Source: an uncultured Anaerolineales bacterium
Lineage (GTDB): Bacteria > Chloroflexota > Anaerolineae > Anaerolineales > UBA11858
Reading direction: 5' to 3'
Length of the DNA: 64,000 nucleotides
NCBI GenBank assembly: GCA_964438295.1
Contig: CAYTKR010000005.1
Coordinates: forward strand, 11,228-75,227
Made by a program: the position numbers and the translations under genes. The stretch's first letter is position 1; each line of letters starts with the position of its first letter. Positions 35,878-54,171 of the stretch are shown piece after piece. Under the pieces are notes generated by a model. That model did no database searches, was not told the origin of the DNA, and worked only from the letters and a program-made list of their open reading frames with translations.

Positions 35878-38331
35878 ATGAATAAACGGAAATATATGCG
35901 GTTCACGAGACTCAGTACTTTGTTTGTGATTTGTGTAATTTTGCTGCTCAGTGGGTGCAATCTTCCAAATAGGGCTTCAATAACGGAAACGCCTGTGGAA
36001 TCTATCGCACTAGTACCAACAGAAGCCATTTTGATATCCAACCAGGCATTGGAAGCTACACTCTCGCCAACACCTACTTCGCTCCCTTCTCCAACGGCAC
36101 TACCCGAACCTACACCTCTGGCAGGTGGTGGCGCGACTGTTTACTTCCTCTCCGATCGCGATAATCAGCCTGACCATTTCGACGTCTATGCCATGGATTT
36201 GATCTCCAAGGAGATTTCTAGAATTACAACAAGTGAGCTTCAAAAACATAATTTGGTAGTTTCTCCAGATGGGCGTTGGGGCGCATTTGTCACCGGAGAT
36301 TTCGAAGCGGAGCTGATTTATACCGTGAATCTCGCACAGTCAAATCCAGAGCCGGCATTGGTTACACCAGATATGCAAAATTCACATTTTCCGATCTGGT
36401 CGCCCGATAGCCAACGTTTGGCTTTTGAGCATGGCCATCAGGTAGGTCAGAGCACAATTTATACGGTAAATCCTGATGGAAGCGACCTGAAGCAAATTTC
36501 CAACACAGAAGATTTCAATATTCAGCCAATATGGTCACCAGACAGTCAACAGATCGGCTACACCAAGTACCCCAACGAAGGCCTGTTTTCAGGAGCACCG
36601 TTGCTGGGCTATTCTCAGGCTTACATTGCCAATGCAGATGGGAGTAACCAGAAACCAATAGGAGATATCGAAGGTTATCGAGAAATATCCCCCCATTGGG
36701 CTTTTGATGGTGAGAATATTCTATTTATGGCAGAAACTACGGGAGAGTTATTGCTTTCTGGCTTGTTCCAGACCGATCCAAGGGGCACTGCGCCTGAGAT
36801 GTTAGTAGAAGGCTCTGAACAGAATTGGTTTTACGATACTTATTATGTCGTCCATTCGCCGGCCGGAAACCGAATGGCGATACTTACTTTCGCGTCATTC
36901 ATTGGTAATTGGGGGGTAAATTACCAAGCCCTTTATACCATGCGCCCAGATGGGAGCGACCTGGTCTTCGTTCACGAATTTTTAGCGCCTGATGAAGCAG
37001 TTTTTGACTCGGCAGCGACTTCCAGAATCACAATCCCGTCGTGGACTCCGGACGGGACTTCAATGATTGTGGATGACAATCAAAACTTGTTTTTGGTCAA
37101 CATATCTACTGGCGAACGGACCCAACTGACGGAGACCGGGCGCAATCTTTCCCCAATGATCATCTATGATCCGGTGATTGCCAATGTCGAGCAGGCAGGC
37201 ACCGAGGTTGTTGAGGCAGCCCAAAGCGAATCCTATTCCCCTTTGGATATTCAGGGAAGCGGGGTGATCGCCTTTGTATCGGATCAAGCCAATCCAAAAG
37301 AGTACACCGATACAGACAATGAGATCTACATCTATGCTCTGCAGAATGGTGAAACCCGGCGCGCTACCTATAATCTAGAAAATGAGAAGAGTCTGGTCTG
37401 GTCGCCGGATGGACGTTTTTTGGCGTATATCGGCGGTGAAGGAGACCAAACGCACTTGTTCGTGCTTGACTATGAAGCCTTTTTGAATTTTGGGACGAGA
37501 CCTGCACAGATCACCAACCTGCCAGGCAGGGTGATGTTCCCTGCCTGGTCGCCGGACAGCGCACAGTTCGCTTTCGTCCACCAACCGGATTTAGCGGCCC
37601 TAAATTCGCATTTGTTTACCATGAATGTCGATGGTAGCAATTTGATCGACCGTTCTTTTGCCCCTGGCATCTACGAGATGCCTCGCTGGTCTCCATCAGG
37701 ATCGCAATTAAGTTTTTCTTACGCTGACGTGCAAACTTTTCAGGGCGCGCCCTTAATCAATAATCCAAGTTCTTTCATCCTTAATTTGGCCAACAACACT
37801 CCCAACCAGATGCCACAAGATGAAGGACATTCTGTTTATGGCCCCATCTGGACGTCAGACGGATCGGCAACCTTTTATTGGAAGCTGTCTGAAATGGAGA
37901 ACGATAAACTTGCCGTTCTCAATGTGGCGACTGGGGAGGAGTTCATTCTCGGTACAGAATTCTCATATGGAGGCGATCGCTGGCTGTCAGCATGGTCTCC
38001 GGACGGTAACCATCTGGCCTTCGTCCTTACTGCTTGGGAAGCATTGAGTAATGAGTATTCTTCCAGCGGCTTATACCTTTTCAGTTTGATGGGAAGCAAT
38101 GAGCCCAACCTTGCGGCGCAAGCCGATTGGTTCGAATATGGAGTGGGTGTGCAATCGCCCTCTTGGTCTCCTAATGGCGATTGGCTGGCATTTACAGGCA
38201 CTGATGTCCCTGAAGGGAAACTAGGGGTTTACGTGGTGGATGCCGATGGGAATAATCTCAGGCGAATCTCTGATGCGTTCAATCATGCCCATTCCCCGGC
38301 CTGGGGTCCTGTTGATATGCGTGCACCCTAA
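35878..38331 (+). CDS. Lipoprotein with multiple PD40/TolB-like beta-propeller repeats
   Basis: Lipobox LSGC and about 15 repeats of the W(S/T)PDG/WSPDS pattern. Confidence 0.8.
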   Translation: MNKRKYMRFTRLSTLFVICVILLLSGCNLPNRASITETPVESIALVPTEAILISNQALEATLSPTPTSLPSPTALPEPTPLAGGGATVYFLSDRDNQPDHFDVYAMDLISKEISRITTSELQKHNLVVSPDGRWGAFVTGDFEAELIYTVNLAQSNPEPALVTPDMQNSHFPIWSPDSQRLAFEHGHQVGQSTIYTVNPDGSDLKQISNTEDFNIQPIWSPDSQQIGYTKYPNEGLFSGAPLLGYSQAYIANADGSNQKPIGDIEGYREISPHWAFDGENILFMAETTGELLLSGLFQTDPRGTAPEMLVEGSEQNWFYDTYYVVHSPAGNRMAILTFASFIGNWGVNYQALYTMRPDGSDLVFVHEFLAPDEAVFDSAATSRITIPSWTPDGTSMIVDDNQNLFLVNISTGERTQLTETGRNLSPMIIYDPVIANVEQAGTEVVEAAQSESYSPLDIQGSGVIAFVSDQANPKEYTDTDNEIYIYALQNGETRRATYNLENEKSLVWSPDGRFLAYIGGEGDQTHLFVLDYEAFLNFGTRPAQITNLPGRVMFPAWSPDSAQFAFVHQPDLAALNSHLFTMNVDGSNLIDRSFAPGIYEMPRWSPSGSQLSFSYADVQTFQGAPLINNPSSFILNLANNTPNQMPQDEGHSVYGPIWTSDGSATFYWKLSEMENDKLAVLNVATGEEFILGTEFSYGGDRWLSAWSPDGNHLAFVLTAWEALSNEYSSSGLYLFSLMGSNEPNLAAQADWFEYGVGVQSPSWSPNGDWLAFTGTDVPEGKLGVYVVDADGNNLRRISDAFNHAHSPAWGPVDMRAP

Positions 38332-38530: not shown

Positions 38531-40120
38531 CTAAGGACGGTATCCAGCGATAAAATTGTCATAGACATAGGGGCACATCCCGTTGACGACCAGGAACTCA
38601 TCATCATTTGGTGTCCAGGAACTGTCGCCTTTTTTCATTTCCTCCGTGCAGTCCGTTGTGCCATAATGATCATAATTCGCATAATATCCAAAGGAATGCA
38701 TGATCTCATGAATTACTGTTGCGGCACTGAAATAATTCGGTGTGGAGGCATAGAGATCATCGGCCGCGGTTTGACACATCGAATACCCGTTTTTCATTAC
38801 GCAAGGTGTTCCAGGCTGGTTCGAGCATTCACCCCCGATTGAGACATCGCTGATGACATTCTCCCCCCATTCATCGTAGCCGCAACGGGCATATTTGTGG
38901 CTGTAATGATTGAACATCACATAGATTTGGTTGTCATTACCAAACGCGTCGACAAAATGATTTTTGAATGAAGTTGGCCCTTCGATAGCATAGGTGAAGC
39001 CTCCCATAGTCCGAGCAAAGTTATCCGCTCCGTACGAGAAAATGACAAGACTGTCAGGGATATCATTTGTCGTTTGTGCTATATAACATTGTGGGATGCT
39101 ATCACGCATAAGATAGTCTGAACTTTGCTCTTGAGTAAACTCAACTGTCCCATAATTTTGTAATCGAATTACGAATCCGGTTAAGTTGAAGAGAATGTTA
39201 CTAGCATCTTGCAACGTGGCTTCTGTTTGTTGCAGGGTCACGGGTTCAGAACTAAGGTCAACCAACGCATCGAAGGAAAAAACGCCCTTGGGCGGACTTC
39301 CATCGGGCGTCGCGAAGGTTTGGGGTGTGTAATCGGTCATCGTGAACACGAAGGGGCACTCAGCATAATCCCCTGATAGAAATATTTCCACATCTGCTCG
39401 TTTGACCCATGCATCATACGTCGAGCCATTTGCAGCATCCCATGAAACGTGCAGGAAGCTGTCGCGCTCTTCAATGACGGTAAAGAATAGCTCAACTTGA
39501 AATGATCCTGAACTTTGTCCACCAGGCCCATCATAAGCGTCGATATGTTGCCCAGCAGGCAGCGTAAAAGAATCTGGGGTATCCGCAACTTGAGAAGACG
39601 AACTCTCAGGAAGCCCTGTGTCGGTAACGATATAAGAAAGGCGGATCAAATCAGCTGCCAACGCTTCTACTCGGAATATGATGTAATCACCCGGTTTGGC
39701 GTGCCGCTTGTAAACATACAGGCCACCTTCTATCAATTCGACACAAAATGGAGAGAAATCATCATCTACAAGGCCCATCTCTGCGGGATTGAGGTCGCTC
39801 AAATCTCCACTGAAACCGCTAAAGAGGTAGAAACCGCCTTGCTGTGGTGGAAAGTTCGCCCAGGCCTCAAATTCAAAACAGTCAGAATTTGTGGTTCGGA
39901 CGTAGAGATCGCCGCCAATTTGATACCCTCTTTCACCGCTAACAAAATCATAACTCTCGAGATCGAATAGTTCAACCTCACCAGATGCAATAACAGCATT
40001 CATCACGCTGAACCCTTTGGTAAGATCGATTGACTGAGGTGGGGCAGACGAAAAACTCAATAAGAGTGCGACGGTTAGAAGCATTAGTGGAATTCGAAAA
40101 AGGGAGGTGATGGTCTTCAT
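38531..40120 (-). CDS. Secreted protein with a C-terminal HExxH zincin motif
   Basis: Signal peptide MKTITSLFRIPLMLLTVALLLSFSSA. HEIMH is encoded at 38696-38710 (CATGAGATCATGCAT on the minus strand), in the context VIHEIMHSFGYY. The start was moved to the ATG at 40120 with an AGGAG RBS. Confidence 0.6.
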   Translation of the reverse strand: MKTITSLFRIPLMLLTVALLLSFSSAPPQSIDLTKGFSVMNAVIASGEVELFDLESYDFVSGERGYQIGGDLYVRTTNSDCFEFEAWANFPPQQGGFYLFSGFSGDLSDLNPAEMGLVDDDFSPFCVELIEGGLYVYKRHAKPGDYIIFRVEALAADLIRLSYIVTDTGLPESSSSQVADTPDSFTLPAGQHIDAYDGPGGQSSGSFQVELFFTVIEERDSFLHVSWDAANGSTYDAWVKRADVEIFLSGDYAECPFVFTMTDYTPQTFATPDGSPPKGVFSFDALVDLSSEPVTLQQTEATLQDASNILFNLTGFVIRLQNYGTVEFTQEQSSDYLMRDSIPQCYIAQTTNDIPDSLVIFSYGADNFARTMGGFTYAIEGPTSFKNHFVDAFGNDNQIYVMFNHYSHKYARCGYDEWGENVISDVSIGGECSNQPGTPCVMKNGYSMCQTAADDLYASTPNYFSAATVIHEIMHSFGYYANYDHYGTTDCTEEMKKGDSSWTPNDDEFLVVNGMCPYVYDNFIAGYRP

Positions 40121-40289
40121 ACTAAATCTCCTTTGGCGATGAAGATACATGCGGGGAACCTGATATTCAATTTTCGTAATTCTATTGGACCAATTAAGCG
40201 CATCTAGGCAATCGGACAAAATTACCCTAATTACTTGGATAATCATACTATAAATGTGGTAATCACATCAAGACCGCGAACTCACAGCA

Positions 40290-40448: not shown

Positions 40449-43355
40449 TTAGTAATCCACCTTTCCTCCTCCTGAATTGAAGATATCCAGCTTGCCTCCA
40501 GATGGAGGTTTACTGCCAGATGCGGTTTTCACCGGGGTGTGCTCCCAAATGTTGTTTTTAGCGAGGTAAGTATGCCGAGTTTGATTCCAGAAGCCTGCAT
40601 CGGTGTTGCTGAAAAATGTGTTGCCTCCGGGGCTTGAGCGGCCTCCAACACCAAAATCACCCATCCAGGTATCTACCATCCAGACCCCGATTCTATTGGT
40701 AAGGAATTCGTTCCCTGCGAATCTTGGATGATAGGTACCGTGCCCTTCCACTCCGATATCATTTCCTTGAAAGATATTCACTGAGACATGGGGAGATGAT
40801 TTGCCTTTGTATAGCAATCCAGCTTTGTTATTATTCTCTATGAAGTTGCCACTGAGCGTTGGACCGCAGGGTTTATCACCAAGAACTTCTATCCCCACCT
40901 CGTTGTCTACAATATGAGATTCCATAATGAACCCGCTCGAACTCCCAACGAGCTGCACCCCGGTTCCTTTTGTAGCCGTTGTAAATTTACATCCTAGAAT
41001 ATGCGGTTCGCCGTTATCGAATAGCAGGCAGGCGCCACCAGCCTTGTTTTCCACCATAACGCGACAAAGCTTGGCGTGCATCGGGGCTACAATCGCGGTC
41101 TGATATGCTTTCCCATCAATCGTGACTGTGCCCTCACCTCGAATGATAGAGCCTTCGTAGAGCCCTTCAACCCAAACATTAGCGGGCAGCTCAATTGGGA
41201 ATATTTCTCCGGCAGTGGCATCATAGGTTCCTGCTCCAAGATGGATTGTACTGCCAGGTTTTGCGATGCTTTTTGCTTTGGTCAAGGTACGGAAGGGTTT
41301 CGATTGGCTGCCGTCACCGCTGCTGTCATTGCCCTGGCCATCCACATAGATCTTCATTTTGCGCGGCGTCAGGTGCGTCAACCATACGGCGCGCATCTCT
41401 GAGAATGCGTGGAAATATATTTCCCAGGCCGCGGCATATCTTGCTACCCGGGCTACCATTTTCGGGTCAGGTTTTTTCCCTTTTTCGTGTACCAGGATGA
41501 AAGCTGAACGGAAATGTTTCGGGCTGTTTTGCACATAAGGTTTGCGCAGGCGGTTTTTGCCATCCCAGTCCGCCAGATTATCATGAGCCAAATTCACACG
41601 TTTTCCTTTTACCCGCAGCTGGTTGTATACCGGTGTAGACGTTTGTATGAACCAGGCATCGATCAACTCGCGCGTACTGCAGAGACCCATTAGATATAAA
41701 TCCAGCGAGCCGAAACAGGCTTCCCCTTTCAAAGCACGCGCGAATACTCCTGGGTTGCCCAGCACTTCGGACCATGTTGCACCTTTCATGACAGAGTGTT
41801 TACCCTGCCCACCCCAAGGCGGAACTACCGCCTGTGTGTGCACATTTCGCAGCCAATGAATTCCATTACTAAGTGAGGGTTGCATCTTATTTCCATCCCA
41901 ATACTGGTTAAAAGCCAACCATTTATGACCTTGCTCATGAGCCAGAAGATGGATGCCATACCACGATACTGTATCTGGCATTAGTTTGTAGGGATGATCG
42001 TTCAATGCCCTTGCGCTACCCATTTTTATTAGGTTTGTCACGTTTGTGAACCCTTTTCCAAGTTGGGTGTTGCGACGATCAAATTTCTTTAAACCGATTC
42101 CTTCGATATCGTTGAAAAGAGGCCAGTTGGAATAGAGCGGGTCAGTTAGGTCTTCGTTGGAGAACATCACCAGGGTATCGTAGTCGTCATCATAATCTTT
42201 GTAGAATGCTTTTGCCACTTCTACGACATTCAAGTCTTTATAACCACCAAATTCCTCGTAGATGCAACCATAGGCTGATTGTTTGGTGAGATACACCGAT
42301 TCATACAGATCTCTGGGAGAAAGAGGTTTCGATTTGTCCCCTGGAGATACACCCACCAAAACTTTGTCAGCGTCAGCCGATTTGTAGTTAAAAGTAATTT
42401 TGTTCGTTTTACCGTCATCGAATAATACTACCTGGAAGCTGCAGCGTTTTTGAGATCCCTTCAGGGATATTCCCACCCAGGTCACTACCAGTTGATCCTT
42501 ACTTTCGTGCAGGATGATCTCTCCTCCTTGTGATGGGTCTAGGTCCGTCCAAAGGGGTGCAATAGCAGGCAGGTTCTTGCGGAATTCCCATTTATCAATC
42601 GACGGGCGCGTATCTCCTTTGGCAAAGGTCAAATTACCATTGGAGTTGACGTAGATAGACCGATAGGTTTTCCTGTAGAAGCGGAATTTGAATGACCCCT
42701 TGAACGAATAATGATGGCTGGCGTTATCTGTGTTGATGGGGATTTTGAATCCCCCGGAGGTAGCGTGCACTTTTTCAAAGGAACCATCGTATTGTCCTGG
42801 CGAGAGCCCCTGAAGATCGAAACCGGTATTTCCATTGCGCATAAAAAGAATTCCCTTACCTATGAAATCGACCGGGTTACGCATTAACATGCTGCCGGTA
42901 TCTTCCACCAGGGCAACATTCAAATGAGGCATTTGGGCCAAGGGTTTGGTATTTCCAATCTCGGTATTTTCGACAACGTCTTCCCTGAGTTCATCCAGCA
43001 GCGGTTTGGAAATATCTGCAAGGGTAGGAGATTTATTCGTTATATCTTCTAGGGCTGTTGCGTAGATTTCTCCAAAATCTTGATCGTCCTCTACCAGCAC
43101 AGGACGATCTATCGCTGGCCAACGATTCTCCCCCATTACAAGCGGTTCCATATCGATGCCTTGCTCTGCCAACAACGCCATCTGCTCTTCGTATCGTTGA
43201 AACAATTCCTCTGGGTCTGCTGATTGACTGCAATAATGCTCCTCGGAAATTTCTACCTCATCCCCCTCCGCCTGGCTGAACTGAAATAACCTGACGATGG
43301 CTGCGGCGATTCGCAAGGCCAATTTCCACATAAATTCTAAGATAGACATTGTCAT
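40449..43355 (-). CDS. Large multidomain protein: acidic N-terminal region, NIDO-like domain, HExxH zincin domain and C-terminal right-handed beta-helix (DUF1565-like)
   Basis: FRFYRKTYRSIYVNSNGNLTF...PAIAPLWTDLD (NIDO-like). HEQGH is encoded at 41925-41939. YVDGQGNDSSGDGSQSKPFRTLTKA plus repeated G/N-rich turns indicate a beta-helix. An AAGGAGA RBS is present. There is no lipobox. Confidence 0.6.
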   Translation of the reverse strand: MTMSILEFMWKLALRIAAAIVRLFQFSQAEGDEVEISEEHYCSQSADPEELFQRYEEQMALLAEQGIDMEPLVMGENRWPAIDRPVLVEDDQDFGEIYATALEDITNKSPTLADISKPLLDELREDVVENTEIGNTKPLAQMPHLNVALVEDTGSMLMRNPVDFIGKGILFMRNGNTGFDLQGLSPGQYDGSFEKVHATSGGFKIPINTDNASHHYSFKGSFKFRFYRKTYRSIYVNSNGNLTFAKGDTRPSIDKWEFRKNLPAIAPLWTDLDPSQGGEIILHESKDQLVVTWVGISLKGSQKRCSFQVVLFDDGKTNKITFNYKSADADKVLVGVSPGDKSKPLSPRDLYESVYLTKQSAYGCIYEEFGGYKDLNVVEVAKAFYKDYDDDYDTLVMFSNEDLTDPLYSNWPLFNDIEGIGLKKFDRRNTQLGKGFTNVTNLIKMGSARALNDHPYKLMPDTVSWYGIHLLAHEQGHKWLAFNQYWDGNKMQPSLSNGIHWLRNVHTQAVVPPWGGQGKHSVMKGATWSEVLGNPGVFARALKGEACFGSLDLYLMGLCSTRELIDAWFIQTSTPVYNQLRVKGKRVNLAHDNLADWDGKNRLRKPYVQNSPKHFRSAFILVHEKGKKPDPKMVARVARYAAAWEIYFHAFSEMRAVWLTHLTPRKMKIYVDGQGNDSSGDGSQSKPFRTLTKAKSIAKPGSTIHLGAGTYDATAGEIFPIELPANVWVEGLYEGSIIRGEGTVTIDGKAYQTAIVAPMHAKLCRVMVENKAGGACLLFDNGEPHILGCKFTTATKGTGVQLVGSSSGFIMESHIVDNEVGIEVLGDKPCGPTLSGNFIENNNKAGLLYKGKSSPHVSVNIFQGNDIGVEGHGTYHPRFAGNEFLTNRIGVWMVDTWMGDFGVGGRSSPGGNTFFSNTDAGFWNQTRHTYLAKNNIWEHTPVKTASGSKPPSGGKLDIFNSGGGKVDY

Positions 43356-44302: not shown

Positions 44303-45472
44303 CTATTCACCACAATACGAATAATTGTGGATGTACTCACCAGACCAGCTTTCGTTGTTGAATGAATCTTCCGTTCTGACTTTATACACCAGTGATCCGG
44401 AGAAGCCATCGGTTTCGATGCCGACCTGGCTGACCCATTGATCGCCGCTAGTGTTGTTCATCTGGATCCAGGCCCAGCCCGCTTCGTTGTGGTTGAACCA
44501 GAACTCTGCCCAGATCACGCCCGAAGGATCGCTCAGGCCAGCCTCGCCGTAGATGGTACAGCCTTCCCAGAAATGGGTGACATAGTTGATGGTCGGGCCG
44601 GTTGTATCCGATGGAGCTGGCTCATAGACTTCCACAGTTGTCCAATAGTCTGTGGCAGAACCATCCATCTCGATCACTTGCAAGTTGTACGTGTAGGTTT
44701 CAGCTGGGCATTCCGAATCGCTGCCGCTGGCGTTCACGGAGACTCCTTCGAAATAGACTGCCTGGAAATCTCCATAGACATTCCAATTCAAAGTGCTGCA
44801 TTCACCCTGGTTGATATACGGAGGCGCGGCCCAAAAATCTGCCGAGGATTCCGTATATGCCGTGGCTGTGGGCGTGGGGGTGTCGCTGGGGGTTGCGGTT
44901 GGTGTTAGCGTTTCGGTTGGAGTGTGTGAAGCCGTAGGCGTTGGAGTGGGAGTTTCAGAGGAAGCTGCCGTAGGCGTAGGTGTCCCGGTGGGTTCTGCAT
45001 CCTCGTCGTCTTGGGGAACGATTTCGGCAGCGGGTTCGCAGGTGCCGATGCAGAAGGTCACTGAGGAAGGGCTGCTCGACCCGCCCCCGGTGCTGTGTGC
45101 TGTGGCCTCAAGGGTGTACTCGCCTTCAGCCGTGGGAATCCATTCCTGATCGAGACGCGCCATCAGGCCACTGCCATCCGTACTGATAGAGTAGGCTGTG
45201 GCTTCCGGCAATGGTTCGCCATTGATGCTCAAATTGAACCCTGAGATGCCATTGGCATCCGTGGCATAGACCACAAAATTGATCGTCTGTTTAGGCAGAT
45301 CCATGCCGTTGAATGGGAATTCGATCCAAACCGTAGTGCCCGTGCTAGCGCCATCTTGTAGCACGGCGCGGTTCAGGGCGAATCCGCTCAGGAGCAGTGA
45401 AACCATCACCACGGCAACCCACACCAACGGAGTCCGGCAATCATTCTTAGGGAAGGAATTTAATTTCTTCAT
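44303..45472 (-). CDS. Secreted Ig-like-domain protein with a TPTPT linker
   Basis: Signal peptide, an N-terminal Ig-like domain similar to that of 45489-48239, the linker PTGTPTPTAASSETPTPTPT..., and two C-terminal modules shared with 48251-50245. An AGGAGA RBS is present. Confidence 0.6.
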   Translation of the reverse strand: MKKLNSFPKNDCRTPLVWVAVVMVSLLLSGFALNRAVLQDGASTGTTVWIEFPFNGMDLPKQTINFVVYATDANGISGFNLSINGEPLPEATAYSISTDGSGLMARLDQEWIPTAEGEYTLEATAHSTGGGSSSPSSVTFCIGTCEPAAEIVPQDDEDAEPTGTPTPTAASSETPTPTPTASHTPTETLTPTATPSDTPTPTATAYTESSADFWAAPPYINQGECSTLNWNVYGDFQAVYFEGVSVNASGSDSECPAETYTYNLQVIEMDGSATDYWTTVEVYEPAPSDTTGPTINYVTHFWEGCTIYGEAGLSDPSGVIWAEFWFNHNEAGWAWIQMNNTSGDQWVSQVGIETDGFSGSLVYKVRTEDSFNNESWSGEYIHNYSYCGE

Positions 45473-45488
45473 CTTATATCTCCTGCTG

Positions 45489-48239
45489 TTATTTCATCTG
45501 CTCGATTGCGCTGCCTCGGACAATGAGCAGGTTGTTCCCTGGGTTGGGATCATTGAAGTCAGGTTTCTTCGGATCATGGTCTTCGAGATATGGAAGAACT
45601 CTTACCTGGAAACCTCGCTCGCATTTACCTAGGTTCTTGCCACAATAGTAGGCAAAGTTCTGGTCGACGTAATCACCGAGCGAGATCCATTGCGGCAGGT
45701 TCGATTGTACGTGTAAGACGGTTCTGCCTTCCCATGGACCGTCAACTTTGAATTTGCCATCATCGTCATAGAGTCCCCAGGTGACGCCGTATTGGATGCG
45801 ATTGTTGAACAAGGGTTCCGGTCCATAATTTTCAACATAGGCAAATAAGCGCAGACCGATGCGTTGGAGCTTGGTGACGGCAAGATCAGCCTGGGCGTGG
45901 ACGACGCCGCCACTGGAAGTGACGGTTGGTTTTTGACCTGTGAGTTCAACTGTCAGTTCACAGTTGCCATCGGGGGTGCGCATGGTGAATGTCCAGGGGT
46001 CTTGTTTCCATGAACTGACCGGAGGCACCAGACCAGCGCCTTTACAAACGCTATCCTGAGCCACGTAGCCCTGGTTGTCGACGCCGCTGACCGAGAAGCG
46101 GATGGTCATGAATTCTTTTTCGGCTAATGCCATACCCAAGGCATTATGCGGTCTGCGGCCATCGAAAGTCCAGGGTTTCAGATCGTAACTGGCTTCTTTG
46201 AGCCAATAGGCGCCTGATGTGCGCCGGAAATCGTTGACATAGACCTTGAGTTGCGCCCCGCCTGAGCCATGGGGCATTTTGTTGATCTTCAGAGTTTTGA
46301 AGGTCACTCCAGCGATAGCGTAAGCCGCTTCGGTATCGCCCTCGACCTTGTTGCTGCGACCGGATTCGCCCTGCCTGCCATACGCGCTGACCTCGTAGCG
46401 ATACAGGCAGCCCATCGGTTCGCCCCGGAAGAGGATTTCGGTCTCTTGCTGGGGGGAGGCGATGATCACAGGGGCGTAAATTTGGGAGTCCATGCCGGGG
46501 CAACTGTATGTGCGATACAGCAGGAAACCGTCGATGTCTTTGCCCGCACCGCTAAAGTGCCAATCCCAGGTGATCACGCGCGAGTTGGTTGTGGTGAGCT
46601 TGACTCGCAGGTTGGTCGGCGCAGGGAAAGCAGCCGTGGTGCCTTTGCCGGTCCATTTGAGATTTTCGACCCAAATCTTGTACTCGACTTTGAAGTTGTC
46701 GTTCTGGGCGATGTAATAGCTTTGGTCTTTGATATCGATATCACCTGGTAAATGAGAGTTGTAAGCCTCTCCAAGATTTGTAGGGCCGCGGGAGTCGCTC
46801 CAGGAAGCCAGGGTGTATGCCGATGACCAAAATTTGGCCGTAATATATTGGTCGGGGTTGAGGAACAGGGAGGCGGCAACCGGGGTGACTTCATCTGACA
46901 TTTGCCACTTCCCTGTGGGGATGTAACTCCCCTGATCTTTGGGAAGCCGTCGACCGGGACTGTTATTGATGCTATACCAAAGGGCAGCAAATCCAGCCCC
47001 GCCGCGTTTGGGTTCCACGCCACGCGCTTGGATGTGAATGTATTTGACGCGCTCAGGATCATCGATGCAGGCCGAGGTCGGTTTGACTTCCACGAAAACC
47101 GGCGCGCTGCGGGATGTACTGATCATGTTCTGTTGAATCACACCTAAAGCAACCTGGTCATGCGGGATGATATCAACCTTACCCTGAGCTTCTACAGAGT
47201 ACTCATAGGTGCCCGGATAGGGAACGTCATCGACGTAGCTGGTCTGGTTTGCAGCTGTGGCAGCCACATATTGCGCTGAAACCTGATCGGGTTTGAGACG
47301 CCGGTAGATGGCAAAGCCGGTTTCATCGGTGGAATTATCTTTCCAGGTCAGCGTGACTTTGCAGTCGCTGGTCATCACAGTCAAGGAATCTGGCGCAGAA
47401 AGGTCAGGATTAGTGCCGTTCATAACCGCTTGAAAGCCAGGGAATAAATTGGGATCGATTTGGGCGACCTGACCTTGGCCGGGTTGGAAGCCAGGGAGTG
47501 ATACGGCGCTGGCCGGCGGTTGAATTGGTAGCAGCCCTGGCAAAATATTTACTTGTCCACCTTGCTGACCTCCTTGTTGCCCCCCCTGTTGGCCCGCGGG
47601 AGGTTTGGCGGGTTGTGACGGAGGCTGGTTGGATCGCGCCCCGGGCACTACCACCACTTGCCCCGGTTTGAGCGCACCACTGACCCCAGGGTTGGCATCC
47701 TGGATGGCAGCGGCGGTACTGCCCGTTTCCTGGGCAACGCTGTCAACGGTATCGCCATCCTGGGCGATAAAGTGTATTTGTTGGGGTTTGTCCGGCACAG
47801 AAGCCTCGATGTTGCTGACGGTGACATGGACCGCCAGGGATTCTCCTAGCGCCCCCGCACTGTTGTACGCTCGGGCAACCATGGCATAGGTGCCGGGTTC
47901 GGTGCCCATCATGCCATAGCTCAAGGTCAGCGGGTTGACCCCATTGACTTCGGCCTCAGGTGCTGCTTGGGAGAGTACCAGAACGCCATCGACCCACAGG
48001 TCCAGGCGTACGACACCTAGAACATCGCGCGCCGTAACAGAAATGGGAAAGGGTTGGTTGAGATCCACCTGAATGCCGGCGGCAGGCTCTTGGAAAGCAA
48101 CCACAGGTCCAGGAACTGATACCTGTGTAGCATCCTCAGTAGGCGCGCCGCCGAGTCCAGGCATGTTACAGGCTAGCGTCGCCAAAAATAGGGTAGCGGC
48201 AATCCAGAGAAAGGTATTGATAACACGTTTTCTTTTCAT
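45489..48239 (-). CDS. Large lipoprotein: Ig-like domain, LysM, Gly/Gln linker, two FN3-like domains and a C-terminal region of about 400 aa of unknown function
   Basis: Lipobox TLAC. LysM is HFIAQDGDTVDSVAQETGSTAAAIQDANPG...GQVVVVPG. There is a GGQQGGQQGGQQGGQ linker. VTLTWKDNSTDETGFAIYRR is FN3-like. An AGGAGG RBS lies before the ATG at 48239. Confidence 0.65.
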   Translation of the reverse strand: MKRKRVINTFLWIAATLFLATLACNMPGLGGAPTEDATQVSVPGPVVAFQEPAAGIQVDLNQPFPISVTARDVLGVVRLDLWVDGVLVLSQAAPEAEVNGVNPLTLSYGMMGTEPGTYAMVARAYNSAGALGESLAVHVTVSNIEASVPDKPQQIHFIAQDGDTVDSVAQETGSTAAAIQDANPGVSGALKPGQVVVVPGARSNQPPSQPAKPPAGQQGGQQGGQQGGQVNILPGLLPIQPPASAVSLPGFQPGQGQVAQIDPNLFPGFQAVMNGTNPDLSAPDSLTVMTSDCKVTLTWKDNSTDETGFAIYRRLKPDQVSAQYVAATAANQTSYVDDVPYPGTYEYSVEAQGKVDIIPHDQVALGVIQQNMISTSRSAPVFVEVKPTSACIDDPERVKYIHIQARGVEPKRGGAGFAALWYSINNSPGRRLPKDQGSYIPTGKWQMSDEVTPVAASLFLNPDQYITAKFWSSAYTLASWSDSRGPTNLGEAYNSHLPGDIDIKDQSYYIAQNDNFKVEYKIWVENLKWTGKGTTAAFPAPTNLRVKLTTTNSRVITWDWHFSGAGKDIDGFLLYRTYSCPGMDSQIYAPVIIASPQQETEILFRGEPMGCLYRYEVSAYGRQGESGRSNKVEGDTEAAYAIAGVTFKTLKINKMPHGSGGAQLKVYVNDFRRTSGAYWLKEASYDLKPWTFDGRRPHNALGMALAEKEFMTIRFSVSGVDNQGYVAQDSVCKGAGLVPPVSSWKQDPWTFTMRTPDGNCELTVELTGQKPTVTSSGGVVHAQADLAVTKLQRIGLRLFAYVENYGPEPLFNNRIQYGVTWGLYDDDGKFKVDGPWEGRTVLHVQSNLPQWISLGDYVDQNFAYYCGKNLGKCERGFQVRVLPYLEDHDPKKPDFNDPNPGNNLLIVRGSAIEQMK

Positions 48240-48250
48240 ATTCAGCCTCC

Positions 48251-50245
48251 TTATGGGCACCAGCCATTCCAGACATACTCGATCCAGGACCAGCTGGGTG
48301 GCCCGTTTGGCATCTGGATCATGCCAGCCATAGGCCCTGTGTAATAGTAAGTACCATCAAACCACTCGGTTCCAGCGGCGTTTTCCACTCTGAAAGTCAC
48401 CGAGTAAACTCCTGAATTGTGGGATACCAAGTAATAGTAACCGCTGTCCGACAAGCCATTGTCGATATAGAAGTCGAAACCGCCGTTGGCGTAAAAATCG
48501 AACGCTGCACAATGAATGATGGTATTTTCGTCCCAGAATTCTCCAGCATAGTACCCGCCCTGCCCATAATTGGTGAGCATCTGCGGCAAAGTTGGATCAG
48601 ATAGTGTGACCGACCCCGACTGATCGGTGAAGCTGCCCGTTGGCAGGGGGTAGTAGGCTTGTTTTTGGCCGCCGCTCCAAAAGCCGACACCGGCAGCGTA
48701 GGTGTGGTTGCCCCCTGATACCTGAACGTCCAAGGAGTGACCAATCATGATCGTCTGGGCTTCGCTGAGGATGACATCCTGGCCATCGATAAGCAGTTCT
48801 ACGACCGGGTGAGATGAATTGTTGGTAAAAGTCACTGTGCCCCCTGCGCCCCCTCCCGGGTTGTTGCCTGCTCCCGACGGGATGATCTGGATATCGACCT
48901 GGGTCCACTTTTCAGATGTATTGTCACAACTTGCGCCCCAGGCGGTAAGGAAATGCGTGTACAGGGCATTGCCTTCATTGGGGTCCACAAAATAGCTATG
49001 TGTGTCAGTGGCGTTGACTTCGACGTTATCTAGGAAGACCTTGCAGGCATCCCAGACTTCCCACTCCAGCAGGATCATATCACCCGGTGCCGCGCTGACG
49101 GGTCCCAGGAAGTAGCGAATATCGGGTTCAGGGGCCACAGGCGGCTGCCCGACTACGCCGCCGCTGCAATAGAACAGCGACATCGACATTAACGGCGTAT
49201 CCGTTTTCATCCCGTTTTTGTCGACCACCTGAATGTAGAAATCAATCGCACCGTCATCCATACCCATTACGTTAGGTGCTTCTGCGCCAGCATCAATATC
49301 CCCAGCGTAGTCGCCGATACCGAGCTGGTACATAGGTGTTGAGTAATTTCCCCAGGAACCAGCAGCACTGGAATAACCATAGTAGATTGTCGCCGAAGCA
49401 ATCTGATCCAAGGGATCGATAGTCGCTTGCACATTGAGGTTGGTGATCTCGTTGACACAGGGACCATAATAGACTTCAGTTTTGGGGTAAAGCTGAATAT
49501 TGGTTATGCTGATCGAACTCGAACTCGCTCCACCTGGAGCGCCGCTGGGAGCACCCCCCGGGGCCTGCGCGCCACCACCACACGGCCAGACCTCAACCCC
49601 GTAGACGAAGCCATCCGGTTCTGTTTGGATGTTTCCGGCGGCATCCATGGCAAAGATCTGGTACTGCATGGTGCCATCATTGCCTTTCAATTCGCCATTG
49701 GCATACGCGGTGACATCGATGGTCACCTGGTATTGTTTCCCCCCGGTGGAGGCCATATTAGCCTGGTACCACTGGTTGCCGCCGATGCCCGCTGAATAGC
49801 TGAGATACTGATAATTGACCCAAACCTGAGCCAGGTTGCCAGAATCATCGCTGGCGTCGGCGTAGATTGTAACGGCGGTCGGCCCGCAGCCGTTTTGGTA
49901 GTACACCTTTGTCGCAGATGTATTGACATTAGAAATTACTGGGGCAGTTTTGTCGCTGGCAGAGGCCGCTTGCGTGGGACGGCCAGTTGGGGTGGGTGGG
50001 GGAATGGGGGTCTGTACATTTGAGCCACTCGCACTCCCGACGGGCGTTACGGCCTGGATTGTAACTGGGATGAGGGGCGATTGATTGTTCCCGGGTGCCG
50101 CTTGAACGGTCAGAGCCACGGATGTCGCGGCGGCGTCAACATCCAGGTCGACACCTTGCGTGATGTTGCAGGCTAAGATCGCCAGGAGTAAAACCAGCAT
50201 GCTGGAGAAGATAAACCTTTGGTTGTTGGTGTGTGCGGAACTCAT
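48251..50245 (-). CDS. Lipoprotein with two tandem copies of a ~120-aa Cys-bounded module and an Ig-like module
   Basis: Lipobox ILAC. The two repeated modules end in ...VWPCGG and ...LFYCSGG. The ATG at 50245 overlaps the upstream stop codon (ATGA) and is preceded by AAGGAGA. Confidence 0.6.
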   Translation of the reverse strand: MSSAHTNNQRFIFSSMLVLLLAILACNITQGVDLDVDAAATSVALTVQAAPGNNQSPLIPVTIQAVTPVGSASGSNVQTPIPPPTPTGRPTQAASASDKTAPVISNVNTSATKVYYQNGCGPTAVTIYADASDDSGNLAQVWVNYQYLSYSAGIGGNQWYQANMASTGGKQYQVTIDVTAYANGELKGNDGTMQYQIFAMDAAGNIQTEPDGFVYGVEVWPCGGGAQAPGGAPSGAPGGASSSSISITNIQLYPKTEVYYGPCVNEITNLNVQATIDPLDQIASATIYYGYSSAAGSWGNYSTPMYQLGIGDYAGDIDAGAEAPNVMGMDDGAIDFYIQVVDKNGMKTDTPLMSMSLFYCSGGVVGQPPVAPEPDIRYFLGPVSAAPGDMILLEWEVWDACKVFLDNVEVNATDTHSYFVDPNEGNALYTHFLTAWGASCDNTSEKWTQVDIQIIPSGAGNNPGGGAGGTVTFTNNSSHPVVELLIDGQDVILSEAQTIMIGHSLDVQVSGGNHTYAAGVGFWSGGQKQAYYPLPTGSFTDQSGSVTLSDPTLPQMLTNYGQGGYYAGEFWDENTIIHCAAFDFYANGGFDFYIDNGLSDSGYYYLVSHNSGVYSVTFRVENAAGTEWFDGTYYYTGPMAGMIQMPNGPPSWSWIEYVWNGWCP

Positions 50246-51831
50246 GCTGAGAGTCTCCTTTTGACCCACCCAATCCCAAACGAGATTGGAAACACGATCA
50301 CACTACCACAAATGGGGAAGTTAAACACCGGCCGAGGGTTCGGCGTTGGTTGGGGTGGGACCTCTTCGGCCACCTCTGGTTGAGCTGTAGGAAGCGGAAT
50401 TGATGTGTTGGTTGGCTGAGGTGGCAGCGTTGGAGGTACGGTTGCAGTGGGGGGCTGGATGTTGGGAATGCCCCAATCGGCCAGGCGCGTATTCACTGTG
50501 CCGCGCCCGCCGGTGGCATGATAGAAGTTCGACACCCCGCACAATTTGCTGAGCATGTAGCAACGGGCATGATAGCTGTACCAGGCGAATTCTGCCTGAG
50601 AAAATTCCGTATCCGAAAACACTATGAAAGCCACATTGAAATGAGTTTGTGCCTGAGGATAGGGAGAAAGGCGTTCCCCACCCGCCGCGGCCATGATTTC
50701 TTCGATGGTGTAAGTCTGCACTTGTTCGGCGGCGACTCTTTCGGGATTAGAGACATCGGGGTTGATGAGAACGTGCACGTCGGGCACTTCGTCAGGCGGG
50801 ATCATGCCCATCAAGTACAACTCAAGGGGAGCGTAGAGACCATCAGTCCATCCCAGAGCTTTGAAGGTTCCATCCCCATTAGGGACAAAAAAGTAGAAAC
50901 CGCCATCAGGAGTTGTGTAACCTTCACTCATCACACCGGTGATATCGCTGTTGCCCGTCCAATGAACCCCATCGGAAATCCCTTGTTCAACGCCAATGAA
51001 TGCTCCCCAGGTATGCCCAAGCTCATGATTCAGCAGATTGCCAGATTCACCAGAATAAACCATGGTCAGCAAGCGCCCCTGGGAACCATACTCCGTGTGG
51101 TAATTTCTATCTTCGAGGCCGATGTTCTTAGCCGCGGTTTGCAAGATCCCGGCGTGTGCTTTCATCCCTAGGTCACCCCTGACCACGGCGAAGTTCAGAA
51201 AATCAAACTCATCAGGATAGACGGAATAGAATTTCTGGGCGATAGCCTGGCCGTTGTAGTCGGTCAAATTAGGAAATGTGCCTGTATACGTCTCGCCCAC
51301 TGGGTCTACGATAAAGAAAGCGTACTCCGTGGCAAACAGACCATTTCCGACCTGTTCAGCGGGGAACTGAACTCGATCTGTAACGATCTGAATGCTGCTT
51401 CCATAAATGAAATCAGATTCTGCCCCACCTGTATACGCCACTTCGATCAGGAGCCAGATTTTCGCCAAATCTATTTGATCGTTTTCATCGTACATGTTTG
51501 GGAAAATGACTTCATCTGGGAACATAGCTGCGGTGATGCCCCCCAAAGTGTAGACTCCATCTCCCGCGGCCTTGTCACCATGGGTGCCGTCATCGAAAAG
51601 CTGCAATACGGGGGTCTCGCCGTACTCAGGTTTAATGGTCACGCTGGCGATATTCCCCTCGGTTGTGTAGACTTCCAGGGTGGTGGTGTCTTGGCCGTTG
51701 TCGTAAATGGCGGTGGGCGAGAAGCGGTAGTAGATATCTGCACCTTGGGCGGCAGCCTGGCTTTCGGGAGAGAGTAAGCTGATGCAGCCTATCAATAGCG
51801 CTGTTACCAGAAGGGCTTTGATGGGTTTCAT
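50242..51831 (-). CDS. Lipoprotein with an HExxH zincin domain, a Pro-rich linker and a C-terminal TM anchor
   Basis: Lipobox LIGC. HELGH is encoded at 51013-51027. The motif series HELGHTW...GVHW...LELYLMGM is shared with 40449-43355. The C-terminus is ...PICGSVIVFPISFGIGWVKRRLSA. The ATG at 51831 has an AGGAGAA RBS. Confidence 0.65.
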   Translation of the reverse strand: MKPIKALLVTALLIGCISLLSPESQAAAQGADIYYRFSPTAIYDNGQDTTTLEVYTTEGNIASVTIKPEYGETPVLQLFDDGTHGDKAAGDGVYTLGGITAAMFPDEVIFPNMYDENDQIDLAKIWLLIEVAYTGGAESDFIYGSSIQIVTDRVQFPAEQVGNGLFATEYAFFIVDPVGETYTGTFPNLTDYNGQAIAQKFYSVYPDEFDFLNFAVVRGDLGMKAHAGILQTAAKNIGLEDRNYHTEYGSQGRLLTMVYSGESGNLLNHELGHTWGAFIGVEQGISDGVHWTGNSDITGVMSEGYTTPDGGFYFFVPNGDGTFKALGWTDGLYAPLELYLMGMIPPDEVPDVHVLINPDVSNPERVAAEQVQTYTIEEIMAAAGGERLSPYPQAQTHFNVAFIVFSDTEFSQAEFAWYSYHARCYMLSKLCGVSNFYHATGGRGTVNTRLADWGIPNIQPPTATVPPTLPPQPTNTSIPLPTAQPEVAEEVPPQPTPNPRPVFNFPICGSVIVFPISFGIGWVKRRLSA

Positions 51832-51848
51832 GTTTTCTCCTATGGTGT

Positions 51849-53732
51849 TCAAAAATCACAATTGGTCTCGCGCAAGCCAAAACCGAAGCGAGTTTCGGTT
51901 TCTCCAGAAATATCTGCACCCAACACCGGGATGACGATCTCGTTCAAAAACGGCACGCAGCTCTGCTCCCCGCGCTGAGCAGCCAGGGTTTGGATCACTG
52001 CTTGAAAGGCATCATGGCCAAAAGTGCTCTCAACGTAATCCCAGAAACACATCCCCGTGCGATAATACTGGCTCTGAGCACTGTAATTCGACTCATCAAC
52101 AACCGCTTCGTGGGCTGGGATGCTCAGGTCTACAAAGGGGTAGGTGACCTTTTCGCTCAGATTGCCGTCGTGGTAATAAACCCAATCCACCCAGCCCTCT
52201 GCTGAGCAACTGAGATACTTGGCATGCGCCGCGTCGGAGCGTTCTGGCTCGTCCAGGTAGGTTGCCAGGCCTTCGTCCAGCCAATGAGGAAGTGAGGTGC
52301 CACCCATGAAAACATGGGTCAACTCATGGGCATCGGCGCATTTCCCAGCGATCATGTTTTGCCAGTTGAGCGGCAATTCGTCTCCAAATTCACCCTTCAA
52401 ACTGGCTTCGATGAAATTGCGGTCTGCGTGGACGATATAGCCAATTTCTGGCATAGAGAAACGACCACCTTCATTGGGATTGGCTGATTTAATCATCCTT
52501 TGATGGACCTGGCTATAAGGAAATGGTATGCCCAGATAATCGCTCAGCGGTCCCATACAATTACCCATATCCATGATCTTCATATTGGCGATTTCTTCGT
52601 GTTCCGCTGGGGCGATGACGATCAGGTTGTCGAGCTGTTTCTTGATTTCATGAGGATCGCTGAGTGGTGCGCTGGCGACAAATTCTGAGCAGGCGGTGTG
52701 GGATTGGGAGGCGCGACATTGTTGGTATTCTGACAGGTTCACCATCTCTCCCTCGGTGAGGGTTGCCAGATCCGATATGGTCATACTCTGCTCGAGGTTG
52801 TTATTTCCAGCAGGATCTTGCGGGTTTTCAGGGGTGATGGCAGCCTGAAGGAGGGCATTTCCGGCTTGGGTAACGCCATAGCTTTCGAAATTTGTACCGG
52901 GGACGAAGACCCCATCGCAGGTTTGGGGTGGCATCATCTTTGGATAAGAGGCCCGCGTTTCAACCCCATTGACTGTGAGGGAGCCTTCGAAGGGTGCTGC
53001 AGAGCCTGCCCCCAGGTTGCAGACAGTGACCTCGAATGTGCCCTGAGCTTCCACTCCATCATATCTCAAAAGGGCGTGCAGGATCATCAAATCAGAGTCG
53101 CCCTCGATTACGGCAGGCTGTGTAAGCGCTTCTGGAATAGATTCCGCCCAGGTGGCAAAGCTGATCTCGACAAAATCAAACGTACTGTCGTAAGAGAAAC
53201 CTTCGCCTCGAACGAGGAAATATCCTAACCGGCCTTCATCTGTTTGATAGCAGATATGCCAGCCAGGGTCGGATACAGAAGGGTTATCCAGGGGGATGCT
53301 GAGTTGATCTTCTCCGCGGGCGAAGGCTTCAGCGCAGGATTGCAAATTGGGTTTCTCATACACTAGAGCGAGCATGGCGCTGTTGGTCGATTCCAAGAAC
53401 TGGAAGTTTTCGTTCTCATATGGGATGGTAAAGAGCAGGTCAGCCCCCGGAGGGTCCTCCGTATCCGTAGCTGAATAACTGCTCAGGGATGTGCTATCCA
53501 GATCGAGCGTCTGGTCGACAGCCAGGGAAACCGTGCCCGAGAAAAAGATAGTTTCTGCCGGCTCTATAGTTGGTTGATCAGTAGGTTGATCGACGACCTC
53601 GATTACTGTTTTGTCTGCTGATTCAGTAGGTTGAACTTCTACTGCCGGAGTGCTGCTCACCATAGGTAGATTACAAGCCAAAACAGTGAACAACAATGCA
53701 CAAGCAATTAGGGGGGGGGTTCGCCAGTTCAT
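51849..53732 (-). CDS. Lipoprotein with a gluzincin-like (Peptidase_MA_2-like) metalloprotease domain
   Basis: Lipobox VLAC. HELTH is encoded at 52314-52328 and is followed 13 residues later by WLDEGLATY (the Glu ligand context). Confidence 0.65.
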   Translation of the reverse strand: MNWRTPPLIACALLFTVLACNLPMVSSTPAVEVQPTESADKTVIEVVDQPTDQPTIEPAETIFFSGTVSLAVDQTLDLDSTSLSSYSATDTEDPPGADLLFTIPYENENFQFLESTNSAMLALVYEKPNLQSCAEAFARGEDQLSIPLDNPSVSDPGWHICYQTDEGRLGYFLVRGEGFSYDSTFDFVEISFATWAESIPEALTQPAVIEGDSDLMILHALLRYDGVEAQGTFEVTVCNLGAGSAAPFEGSLTVNGVETRASYPKMMPPQTCDGVFVPGTNFESYGVTQAGNALLQAAITPENPQDPAGNNNLEQSMTISDLATLTEGEMVNLSEYQQCRASQSHTACSEFVASAPLSDPHEIKKQLDNLIVIAPAEHEEIANMKIMDMGNCMGPLSDYLGIPFPYSQVHQRMIKSANPNEGGRFSMPEIGYIVHADRNFIEASLKGEFGDELPLNWQNMIAGKCADAHELTHVFMGGTSLPHWLDEGLATYLDEPERSDAAHAKYLSCSAEGWVDWVYYHDGNLSEKVTYPFVDLSIPAHEAVVDESNYSAQSQYYRTGMCFWDYVESTFGHDAFQAVIQTLAAQRGEQSCVPFLNEIVIPVLGADISGETETRFGFGLRETNCDF

Positions 53733-53740
53733 AGCATACC

Positions 53741-53962
53741 TTATTTCAACTTGCTAGGTTGCGACTGCGCAGCTTTTGGGGTGCCCAGTTGAGCTCGGAA
53801 ATATTCGAGCAAGTCCTCCATATCTTGGATCGCGGTGGTCTCTCCGCTGGCGATATGTTGAACTTGCCCGTTCCAGCTTGCCTGAGGTGTGTCTTCACGC
53901 CACAGGCGGACGATATAGGTTTGTCGAAAAGGTTGGGTATCGTTTTGTTTTTCCATAATCAT
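53741..53962 (-). CDS. Small (~73 aa) hypothetical protein, first ORF of the lipoprotein operon
   Basis: Core sequence YIVRLWRED...WNGQVQHIASGETTAIQDMEDLLEYF. Its stop codon lies 8 nt before the next ATG, inside that gene's RBS. The exact start is uncertain (ATG at 53962 or 53956). Confidence 0.45.
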   Translation of the reverse strand: MIMEKQNDTQPFRQTYIVRLWREDTPQASWNGQVQHIASGETTAIQDMEDLLEYFRAQLGTPKAAQSQPSKLK

Positions 53963-53993
53963 AGGAGTTGCGTACTCGAAGCGAGGTGTGCTG

Positions 53994-54032
53994 GGAATAG
54001 GGGAGGGAGGCTTCGTCCCCATCCCCTATTCC
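53994..54032. repeat. GC-rich hairpin in the leader or promoter region of the operon
   Basis: GGAATAGGGGA-n17-TCCCCTATTCC is an 11-bp perfect stem. It overlaps the track's N-terminal extension of the small ORF. Confidence 0.45.
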
Positions 54033-54071: not shown

Positions 54072-54110
54072 TAAAAAAATAAACTGATACTCGTTTACGA
54101 ATATCAGTTT
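54072..54110 (-). terminator. Rho-independent terminator of the regulator gene
   Basis: On the minus strand: AAACTGATA-n12-TATCAGTTT followed by ATTTTTTTAA. Confidence 0.45.
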
Positions 54111-54171
54111 ATAGGCTATCTGTCTCAAAAGTGTCTTGATTCGTTCAGCAGTGCAAAACCTTGGGGACATT

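Follow-up and report, generated by a model that had tools for sequence, protein, structure and literature searches.

The window analysed here is a stretch of 64,000 nucleotides from an uncultured Anaerolineales bacterium (assembly GCA_964438295.1, contig CAYTKR010000005.1, positions 11,228 to 75,227 of the forward strand). The subject is a domain with an HExxH motif that is shared by two proteins of the window, here called protein A and protein B. The genes and all features of the two proteins described below lie on the minus strand.

The gene of protein A (40449..43355) encodes 968 residues according to the list of open reading frames (ORFs). The protein consists, in order, of an N-terminal hydrophobic segment (residues 1-25), a NIDO domain, the HExxH domain and a DUF1565/right-handed beta-helix. 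The HExxH domain spans residues 365-663 (41367..42263; envelope of the superfamily hidden Markov model (HMM), residues 368-663). Translation and column conservation place the HEQGH motif (H473, E474, H477), which is followed by K-W479, at 41925..41939. Downstream of it are the HW motif H500-W501 (41853..41858), whose H500 is the proposed third metal ligand, and L553-Y554-L-M556-G557 (41685..41699), in which the Tyr and the Gly are invariant across the superfamily. Column conservation further identifies R604 (41544..41546) as the invariant Arg of a G-x-R-x-P block. The best NIDO stretch in Pfam (residues 233-288; 42492..42659) is N-terminal to the HExxH domain, and the DUF1565/parallel beta-helix (residues 674-943; 40527..41336) is matched in Pfam at 8.2e-27 and, under its own cutoff, by the NCBIfam LIC10774/LIC10365 surface-protein subfamily (Leptospira-type beta-helix) at 2.4e-27. 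In total, Pfam found NIDO, DUF1565, Beta_helix and NosD in protein A, and no family was matched over residues ~365-663. The only close relative, P0121 (962 residues, 64% identical in the domain), has the same architecture, including the N-terminal hydrophobic stretch.

The gene of protein B (50242..51852) encodes 536 residues when counted from the TTG of the ORF list. The ATG at 51831 corresponds to Met8, and this is likely the true start, giving 529 residues, because a 99%-identical database protein (P0001, 529 residues) begins there. Protein B starts with a Sec-type signal peptide and an immunoglobulin (Ig)-like choice-of-anchor X domain; the HExxH domain comes next, and a Pro/Thr linker connects it to a hydrophobic tail at the C-terminus. 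Pfam-A gave no annotation anywhere in protein B. The N-terminal beta-sandwich (residues 40-157; 51382..51735), all strands in the predicted structure, carries the choice-of-anchor X signature LFDDGTHGDxxAGDGVYT and is matched by NCBIfam NF041940 at 5.5e-8. The HExxH domain covers residues 199-458 (50479..51258; HMM envelope 191-458) and contains HELGH (H276, E277, H280; 51013..51027), which is followed by T-W282-G283 and is placed by the predicted structure in a short helix of residues 274-279. It also contains the HW motif H297-W298 (50959..50964), with H297 as the proposed third metal ligand, L345-Y346-L-M348-G349 (50806..50820), recognised from conservation over 378 sequences, and R394 (50671..50673), conserved in 377 of them. 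The tail (50245..50337) reads PRPVFNFPIC, approximately 20 hydrophobic residues and KRR; its pattern of RPxFNFPIC, hydrophobic stretch and basic residues is kept in the orthologues P0001, P0005, P0008, P0011 and P0013. The tail is likely a membrane anchor or sorting signal and, with its conserved Cys, looks like an undescribed sorting or anchor signal of Anaerolineales.

An earlier note on this DNA had pointed out a three-block pattern common to the two proteins, and both motif strings are indeed present on the minus strand: 41685-41939 translates to HEQGHKWLAFNQYWDGNKMQPSLSNGIHW...SLDLYLMG (residues 473-557 of A) and 50803-51027 to HELGHTWGAFIGVEQGISDGVHW...PLELYLMGM (residues 276-350 of B). 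The pattern itself holds, although the gap lengths given for it were slightly off. The distance from LAF or GAF to NGIHW or DGVHW is 14 residues in A and 8 in B, rather than 16 and 11, and that from HW to (S/P)L(D/E)LYLMG is 48 and 43 residues, rather than ~50 and ~45.

The proposal that the two regions belong to one domain family is supported by homology over approximately 250 residues. BLASTP aligned A with B at E=2e-9 and 28% identity across 154 residues. An HMM of B and 55 B homologues, from which A was excluded, scored A at 63.4 bits (domain E=6e-21, A residues 375-625), and the alignment includes blocks upstream of HExxH (A-K-x-F-Y-x-x-x-x-D-x-Y-D and N-D-I-x-G-I-G) as well as downstream of it (G-x-R-x-P and F-R-x-A-F-I). 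In the reverse direction, an HMM of A-like sequences scored B at 93.6 bits, and hhalign of the two subfamily alignments gave a probability of 100% and E=3.9e-43 over 241 aligned columns. At the level of sequence, the similarity is far beyond chance and extends well outside the three motif blocks, over a whole shared domain of ~260-300 residues. Short motifs such as HExxH are common, and the same cluster holds two further HExxH proteins (38531-40246 and 51849-53732), so that a chance or compositional coincidence between unrelated HExxH proteins had to be considered. The BLASTP, reciprocal profile and hhalign results refute a chance origin, the likelihood of which is negligible. The two further HExxH proteins, which were tried as members of the family, reached at most ~5.5 bits against the A and B profiles and were rejected; no third member was found in the six-frame translation of the window.

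The blocks of the family are, in order, F-Y-x-x-x-x-D-x-[FY]-D, N-D-[IV]-x-G-I-G, G-S-x-G-R-L, [HQ]-E-x-x-H-x-W, H-W, L-x-x-Y-L-M-G and G-x-R-x-P. Both A and B hold the core of these blocks in this order (D-x-[FY]-D, I-G, G-S...L, HExxHxW, HW, L-x-x-Y-L-M-G and the invariant Arg), and they differ from the family at a few semi-conserved positions; B, for instance, has T239 instead of Asn, and A has R449/A450 instead of Gly/Arg.

Conservation, family searches and predicted structure

Conservation was counted over 378 aligned domains on the basis of hmmalign, and residues are numbered as in B. Y346 and G349 are conserved in 100% of the domains and R394 in 99.7%, followed by E277 (99%), H280 (98%), W282 (97%), D214 (96%) and M348 (95%), the last being Ala in 14 sequences. 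Position 276 is His in 75% and Gln in 23%, and accordingly the motif is a full HExxH in 72% and QExxH in 23% of the domains. In 360 of the 378 domains, HExxH or QExxH has an H-[WFY] motif downstream of it, which is nearly always HW; HExxH, HW and the Tyr occur together in 272 sequences, and QExxH, HW and the Tyr in 88. The HW histidine lies 13-28 residues past the second His of the motif, and the Tyr of Y-x-M-G lies 39-63 residues beyond the HW histidine. No invariant Glu that could act as a gluzincin ligand was found among the domains; farther downstream, E355 alone is an acidic position with partial conservation (72% Glu, 11% Asp), and it is ~75 residues away in an E-V-P loop.

The QExxH members keep the Glu, the second His, the Trp, HW, Y-x-M-G and the Arg. 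They include P0144, P0356, P0375 and P0378 from Nannocystis spp., the MYXO-CTERM proteins of Nannocystis having the sequence GQELGHAWLAF. The position equivalent to residue 212 of B is His in 88% of the QExxH group, compared with 26% of the HExxH group. In nine members the HExxH motif is degenerate, and all nine keep Y346. HW is also lost in five of them (P0081, P0088, P0262, P0240 and P0053), and this partial co-loss lends modest support to the idea that the three histidines form one functional unit, a three-His metal site. These five proteins, in which the HExxH histidines and HW are gone and Y346, G349 and R394 are kept, are probably catalytically dead pseudoenzymes.

Pfam-A, NCBIfam and the PDB served as proxies for MEROPS in the family assignment. 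The isolated A and B domains matched zero Pfam families even at E<=10, the HExxH domain gave no match in NCBIfam, and sequence and profile searches of all PDB chains gave zero matches at E<=10. The earlier note had been unable to assign the domain to a named family and had mentioned M6, M60 and M64. The assignment fails here as well, since no Pfam-A, NCBIfam or PDB entry matches and the M6, M60-like and M64 models (PF05547, PF13402 and PF09471) gave no HMM match on A or B at E<=10. In Pfam scans of each of 56 relatives of B and 60 relatives of A, the first 25 families listed per scan included none of these three models on the catalytic domain and were accessory domains only, besides faint matches to Reprolysin_5 in 3 of the 116 members (E 0.003-0.055); any family beyond those listed was matched in one member at most. 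Such faint matches to Reprolysin_5 can be obtained from any HExxH helix. In public sources, members go by the names "hypothetical protein", "large repetitive protein", "CARDB domain-containing" and "T9SS type A" or "MYXO-CTERM sorting domain-containing"; every name found refers to accessory or sorting domains or is "hypothetical". No description of the family was found in literature searches. The A/B domain is probably, as far as can be judged from sequence, an undescribed family of extracellular zinc proteases that is present in hundreds of bacterial species.

The structure of B was predicted using AlphaFold2. The full-length model, obtained with an alignment of 56 sequences, has a mean predicted local distance difference test score (pLDDT) of 85.2 and a predicted template modelling score (pTM) of 0.79, with disorder only in the signal peptide, the Pro/Thr linker and the C-terminal tail. 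A Foldseek search with this model returned only Ig-like and antibody matches through the N-terminal beta-sandwich; because these swamped the search, the catalytic domain (residues 190-460) was modelled and searched alone, and its model reached a pLDDT of 92.7 and a pTM of 0.91. The first part of the domain model comprises a helix (201-211), three strands (218-223, 233-236 and 263-266) and the short helix 274-279 with H276 and E277, an arrangement that is compatible with the N-subdomain of zincins. The middle part is a long loop with H297-W298, a hairpin (319-333) and a short helix (342-347) that ends in Y346-L-M348-G349. The C-terminal half is beta-rich, with helices 383-389 and 419-433.

Candidate chemistry and its alternatives

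Proteins A and B are considered each to carry one copy of an unannotated metallohydrolase domain, most likely a zinc endopeptidase, within an exported, surface-tethered multidomain protein, with a probability of roughly two in three. The evidence is that A and B are homologous, that the residues listed above are conserved, that HExxH and HW are in part lost together, that the fold is predicted with confidence and has HExxH in a short helix, that signals for export are present, and that the domain is missing from Pfam, NCBIfam and the PDB. That the family comprises surface-tethered zinc metallohydrolases is quite probable, and peptidase chemistry specifically is held with lower confidence.

In the proposed mechanism, a metal ion, presumably Zn2+, would be bound by the HExxH histidines (H276 and H280 in B, H473 and H477 in A), with the HW histidine (H297 in B, H500 in A) as the third ligand. 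The Glu of the motif (E277/E474) would act as the general base that activates a water molecule, and the invariant Tyr (Y346/Y554) of L-x-x-Y-L-M-G would polarise or stabilise the scissile carbonyl. The Met adjoining this Tyr may pack beneath the metal site in the manner of a Met-turn, and the invariant Arg (R394/R604) may touch the substrate. The flanking domains, namely choice-of-anchor X and the C-terminal anchor in B and NIDO and the beta-helix in A, would place the enzyme at the cell surface or on its substrate.

Several observations weigh against this assignment. The replacement of the first His by Gln in 88 of the 378 domains is unusual for a presumed zinc ligand. The Gln may ligate the metal, or another residue may replace the missing His, or the first motif position may have no part in binding the metal; the site would then not be that of a canonical zincin. 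The co-loss is only partial, as P0084, P0149, P0183 and P0232 keep HW despite a degenerate HExxH motif, and the active-site helix in the model is unusually short. When the domain model was searched with Foldseek against 350,542 PDB chains, no significant match was obtained; the best had E=2.3 with TM scores not above 0.14, and there was no metallopeptidase among the matches listed. The search against BFVD was likewise non-significant, with a best E of 0.41. Finally, literature searches found no experimental data on any member of the family. A few SprT-like and BepA models were among the non-significant BFVD matches, and these, together with the Reprolysin_5 matches, are taken as generic similarity to a zincin helix and counted weakly in favour of a zinc endopeptidase. 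As for the zincin catalytic domain that the earlier note had recognised in both proteins, the shared family stands, the zincin fold was not recovered by Foldseek, and catalysis is something that we infer.

The domain might instead be a very divergent member of a described peptidase family or clan that is an orphan at the sequence level only, for example an M8-like metzincin with a displaced third His or a protein similar to M6, M60 or M64. This is judged unlikely, because the searches of Pfam, NCBIfam and the PDB described above are empty even at E=10 and Foldseek returned no zincin despite the high pLDDT of the model. Moreover, the Gly of the metzincin motif is not kept throughout the superfamily (A has Leu), the third His is never found at +6, and E355 is not conserved enough for a gluzincin ligand. 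A more radical alternative, entertained as a tentative possibility, is that of a structurally new metallohydrolase clan, with a fold that has no solved relative. In such a clan the second His of [HQ]ExxH, the HW His and a further ligand would form the metal site, the first motif position would be dispensable, and the invariant Tyr/Arg pair would complete the catalytic machinery.

It is also conceivable that the domain is not a peptidase and that the Glu, the second His, HW, the Tyr and the Arg serve the hydrolysis of glycans, lipids or the cell wall, or the binding of a ligand, with a partly coincidental resemblance to HExxH. The fixation of these residues while Gln takes the first position, and the absence of a zincin fold match, fit such a role. 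The same applies to the partner domains of carbohydrate or adhesion type (beta-helix/DUF1565, NIDO, CARDB and alpha/alpha-toroid) and to the LysM domain among the cluster neighbours, LysM being a module that binds peptidoglycan. However, the members with a full HExxH have a Trp two positions past the second His, and a hydrophobic residue there is the classical context of zinc peptidases. Furthermore, HW disappears together with HExxH in five of the nine degenerate members, and no glycosidase, lyase or esterase family was among those listed in the Pfam scans. A function outside proteolysis is regarded as quite improbable.

Gene cluster and distribution of the family

The genes of A and B belong to a run on the minus strand that extends from 53.7 kb down to 38.5 kb in the order small ORF, D, B, E, F, G, H, A and C, downstream of the gene of a BTAD-AAA-TPR-HTH regulator (54172-57852). 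A strong, terminator-like hairpin with a 15-base-pair stem and TTTTTTT (54079-54112, minus strand) lies just downstream of the regulator gene and probably separates its transcript from the structural operon. The small ORF (53741-54022, minus strand) is located after the regulator gene and before the first structural gene and encodes 93 residues; its counterparts in six related loci have 71 residues, are 45-73% identical and have no Pfam match. Protein D (51849-53732, minus strand; 627 residues), directly upstream of B, carries the gluzincin-like pattern AHELTH...HWLDEGLATY (HExxH and WLxEG); it has no Pfam or PDB match and only a faint match to flagellinolysin (0.12). The 571-residue protein at the end of the cluster (38531-40246, minus strand) carries VIHEIMHSFGYYANYDHYG and has only a faint Peptidase_M4 match (0.047) and no PDB match. 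Proteins E (48251-50269), F (45489-48260; Big_7, LysM and fn3) and G (44303-45472; Big_7), all on the minus strand, cross-match several paralogues of different sizes in related loci (L001, L006, L012 and L013), and one of their relatives is a 1272-residue protein with FHA, YscD, Big_7 and LysM. On the whole, the cluster resembles a modular collection of proteins of the envelope or surface. Some of the called ORFs overlap, the stop codon of D with the TTG start of B (51849-51852) and the GTG start of E with the last 28 nucleotides of B (50242-50269). The true starts are probably downstream of the called ones, which for B would be the ATG named above.

The order MscS, regulator, small ORF, (D), B, E, F, G and H is conserved in several metagenome-assembled genomes (MAGs) of Anaerolineales, and protein D adjoins B in some of them (74% identical, L001/L005) and is absent in others. 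In the closest MAG (uncultured Anaerolineales binchicken_co65_55), in which B is 92% identical, an orthologue of A also follows H. Another MAG has no A and two others have a second paralogue of B between G and H; the copy number of the family in the cluster therefore varies. In the closest MAG (L004, CAYWIC010000104.1, 5395-5851), the regulator and protein D are reduced to the first 130 and the last 22 residues, respectively, which stand side by side directly upstream of B; this is either a deletion of ~5 kb or a misassembly.

An exhaustive HMMER search with the domain of A found at least 830 cluster representatives (50% identity clusters) at E<=1e-3 and 107 at E<=1e-10, while a word-indexed homologue search with the catalytic region of A gave no match. 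Among 185,579 GTDB species genomes, at least 534 loci in more than 12 phyla were confirmed; the distribution was determined with two degenerate peptide patterns alone, and the number of loci is a lower bound. The phyla include Chloroflexota, Acidobacteriota, Myxococcota, Planctomycetota, Nitrospirota, Gemmatimonadota, Verrucomicrobiota, Patescibacteria, Firmicutes (Christensenellaceae), Bacteroidota (Flavobacteriaceae and the cultured Fodinibius halophilus) and Desulfobacterota/Geobacter, and one MAG contig is labelled archaeal.

The architectures are diverse. NIDO is followed by the HExxH domain in 17 of the 60 relatives of A, and other members end in T9SS, MYXO-CTERM or dockerin tails instead of the tail seen in B. 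Giant relatives of 5,700-6,600 residues (P0181, P0225, P0242, P0252, P0258 and others) have the HExxH domain at residues ~60-380, followed by an alpha/alpha-toroid similar to prenyltransferases and squalene cyclases and by CARDB repeats, with RTX repeats in one case. One giant relative comes from a Pseudomarimonas MAG. A homologue on the megaplasmid pACIX901 of Granulicella tundricola (L084, 367482-369728; WP_013572926.1), a hypothetical protein in RefSeq, adjoins a protein with a dipeptidyl peptidase IV (DPP IV) N-terminal domain. In the window, a PD40/DPPIV_N beta-propeller protein (35878-38331, plus strand) flanks the cluster, and the two DPP IV-type neighbours may reflect a recurrent neighbourhood related to proteolysis, a context that also counts in favour of the proposed zinc endopeptidase.

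With a definition of the family, hundreds of surface proteins now called "hypothetical" could be named, and it would add a candidate class of extracellular proteases to heterotrophs of sediment and soil such as Anaerolineales, the ecology of which centres on polymer degradation. The structural interest lies in an HExxH domain without a solved relative and in a natural His-to-Gln variant at a presumed metal ligand. No concept is overturned by the A/B family, because new HExxH families turn up from time to time.

Comparison with known metallopeptidases

In the metzincins (clan MA(M)), the motif is HExxHxxGxxH/D, with the third ligand six residues past the second His and a Met-turn below the metal. 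In leishmanolysin (M8) the third His is displaced by an insert, and in astacin and serralysin a Tyr is located in the Met-turn. The A/B family resembles the metzincins in having HExxH, a conserved His downstream and, further on, a conserved Met next to a Tyr that is conserved too, as well as in being secreted and multidomain, and B has the Gly of HExxHxxG. The difference lies in the third His, which is 13-28 residues away within the HW motif, so that the HExxHxxGxxH spacing is absent: B reads HELGHTWGAFI, with the Gly present and Ile at +6, and A reads HEQGHKWLAFN. In addition, the Gly is not conserved in the superfamily, the Met is replaced by Ala in ~4%, and the predicted structure has Y-L-M-G where a short helix ends. 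Among the Pfam families listed, no metzincin model gave more than the faint Reprolysin_5 matches, and no metzincin was matched to the A/B family by Foldseek.

In the gluzincins (thermolysin M4, M1, M48 and others), a Glu in a downstream helix is the third ligand. The A/B family shares with them HExxH and the hydrophobic residue that comes second after the last His of the motif; it differs in having HW, Y-x-M-G and G-x-R-x-P instead of a conserved downstream Glu. The zincin-type HExxH itself is conserved across the homologues and, in the model of B, is predicted to lie in a short helix. At the sequence level, the A/B family fits neither the metzincins nor the gluzincins nor M6, M60 and M64.

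The elastase FP0506 of Flavobacterium psychrophilum has been called a new zincin family; it has ExxA 19 residues on and an HHpred match to PF04228/M48 (PMC6414381). FP0506 was considered as a relative and rejected, because a gluzincin with HExxH and ExxA that is related to PF04228/M48 is unlike the A/B family. Both are surface-exposed bacterial proteins that resist family assignment. In overall design, the A/B family resembles M6 (immune inhibitor A), M60-like (enhancin) and M64 (IgA peptidase), which are likewise large HExxH proteins that bacteria secrete and that contain Ig-like or adhesion modules, and one relative in the A/B family carries a MAM accessory domain like that of immune inhibitor A.

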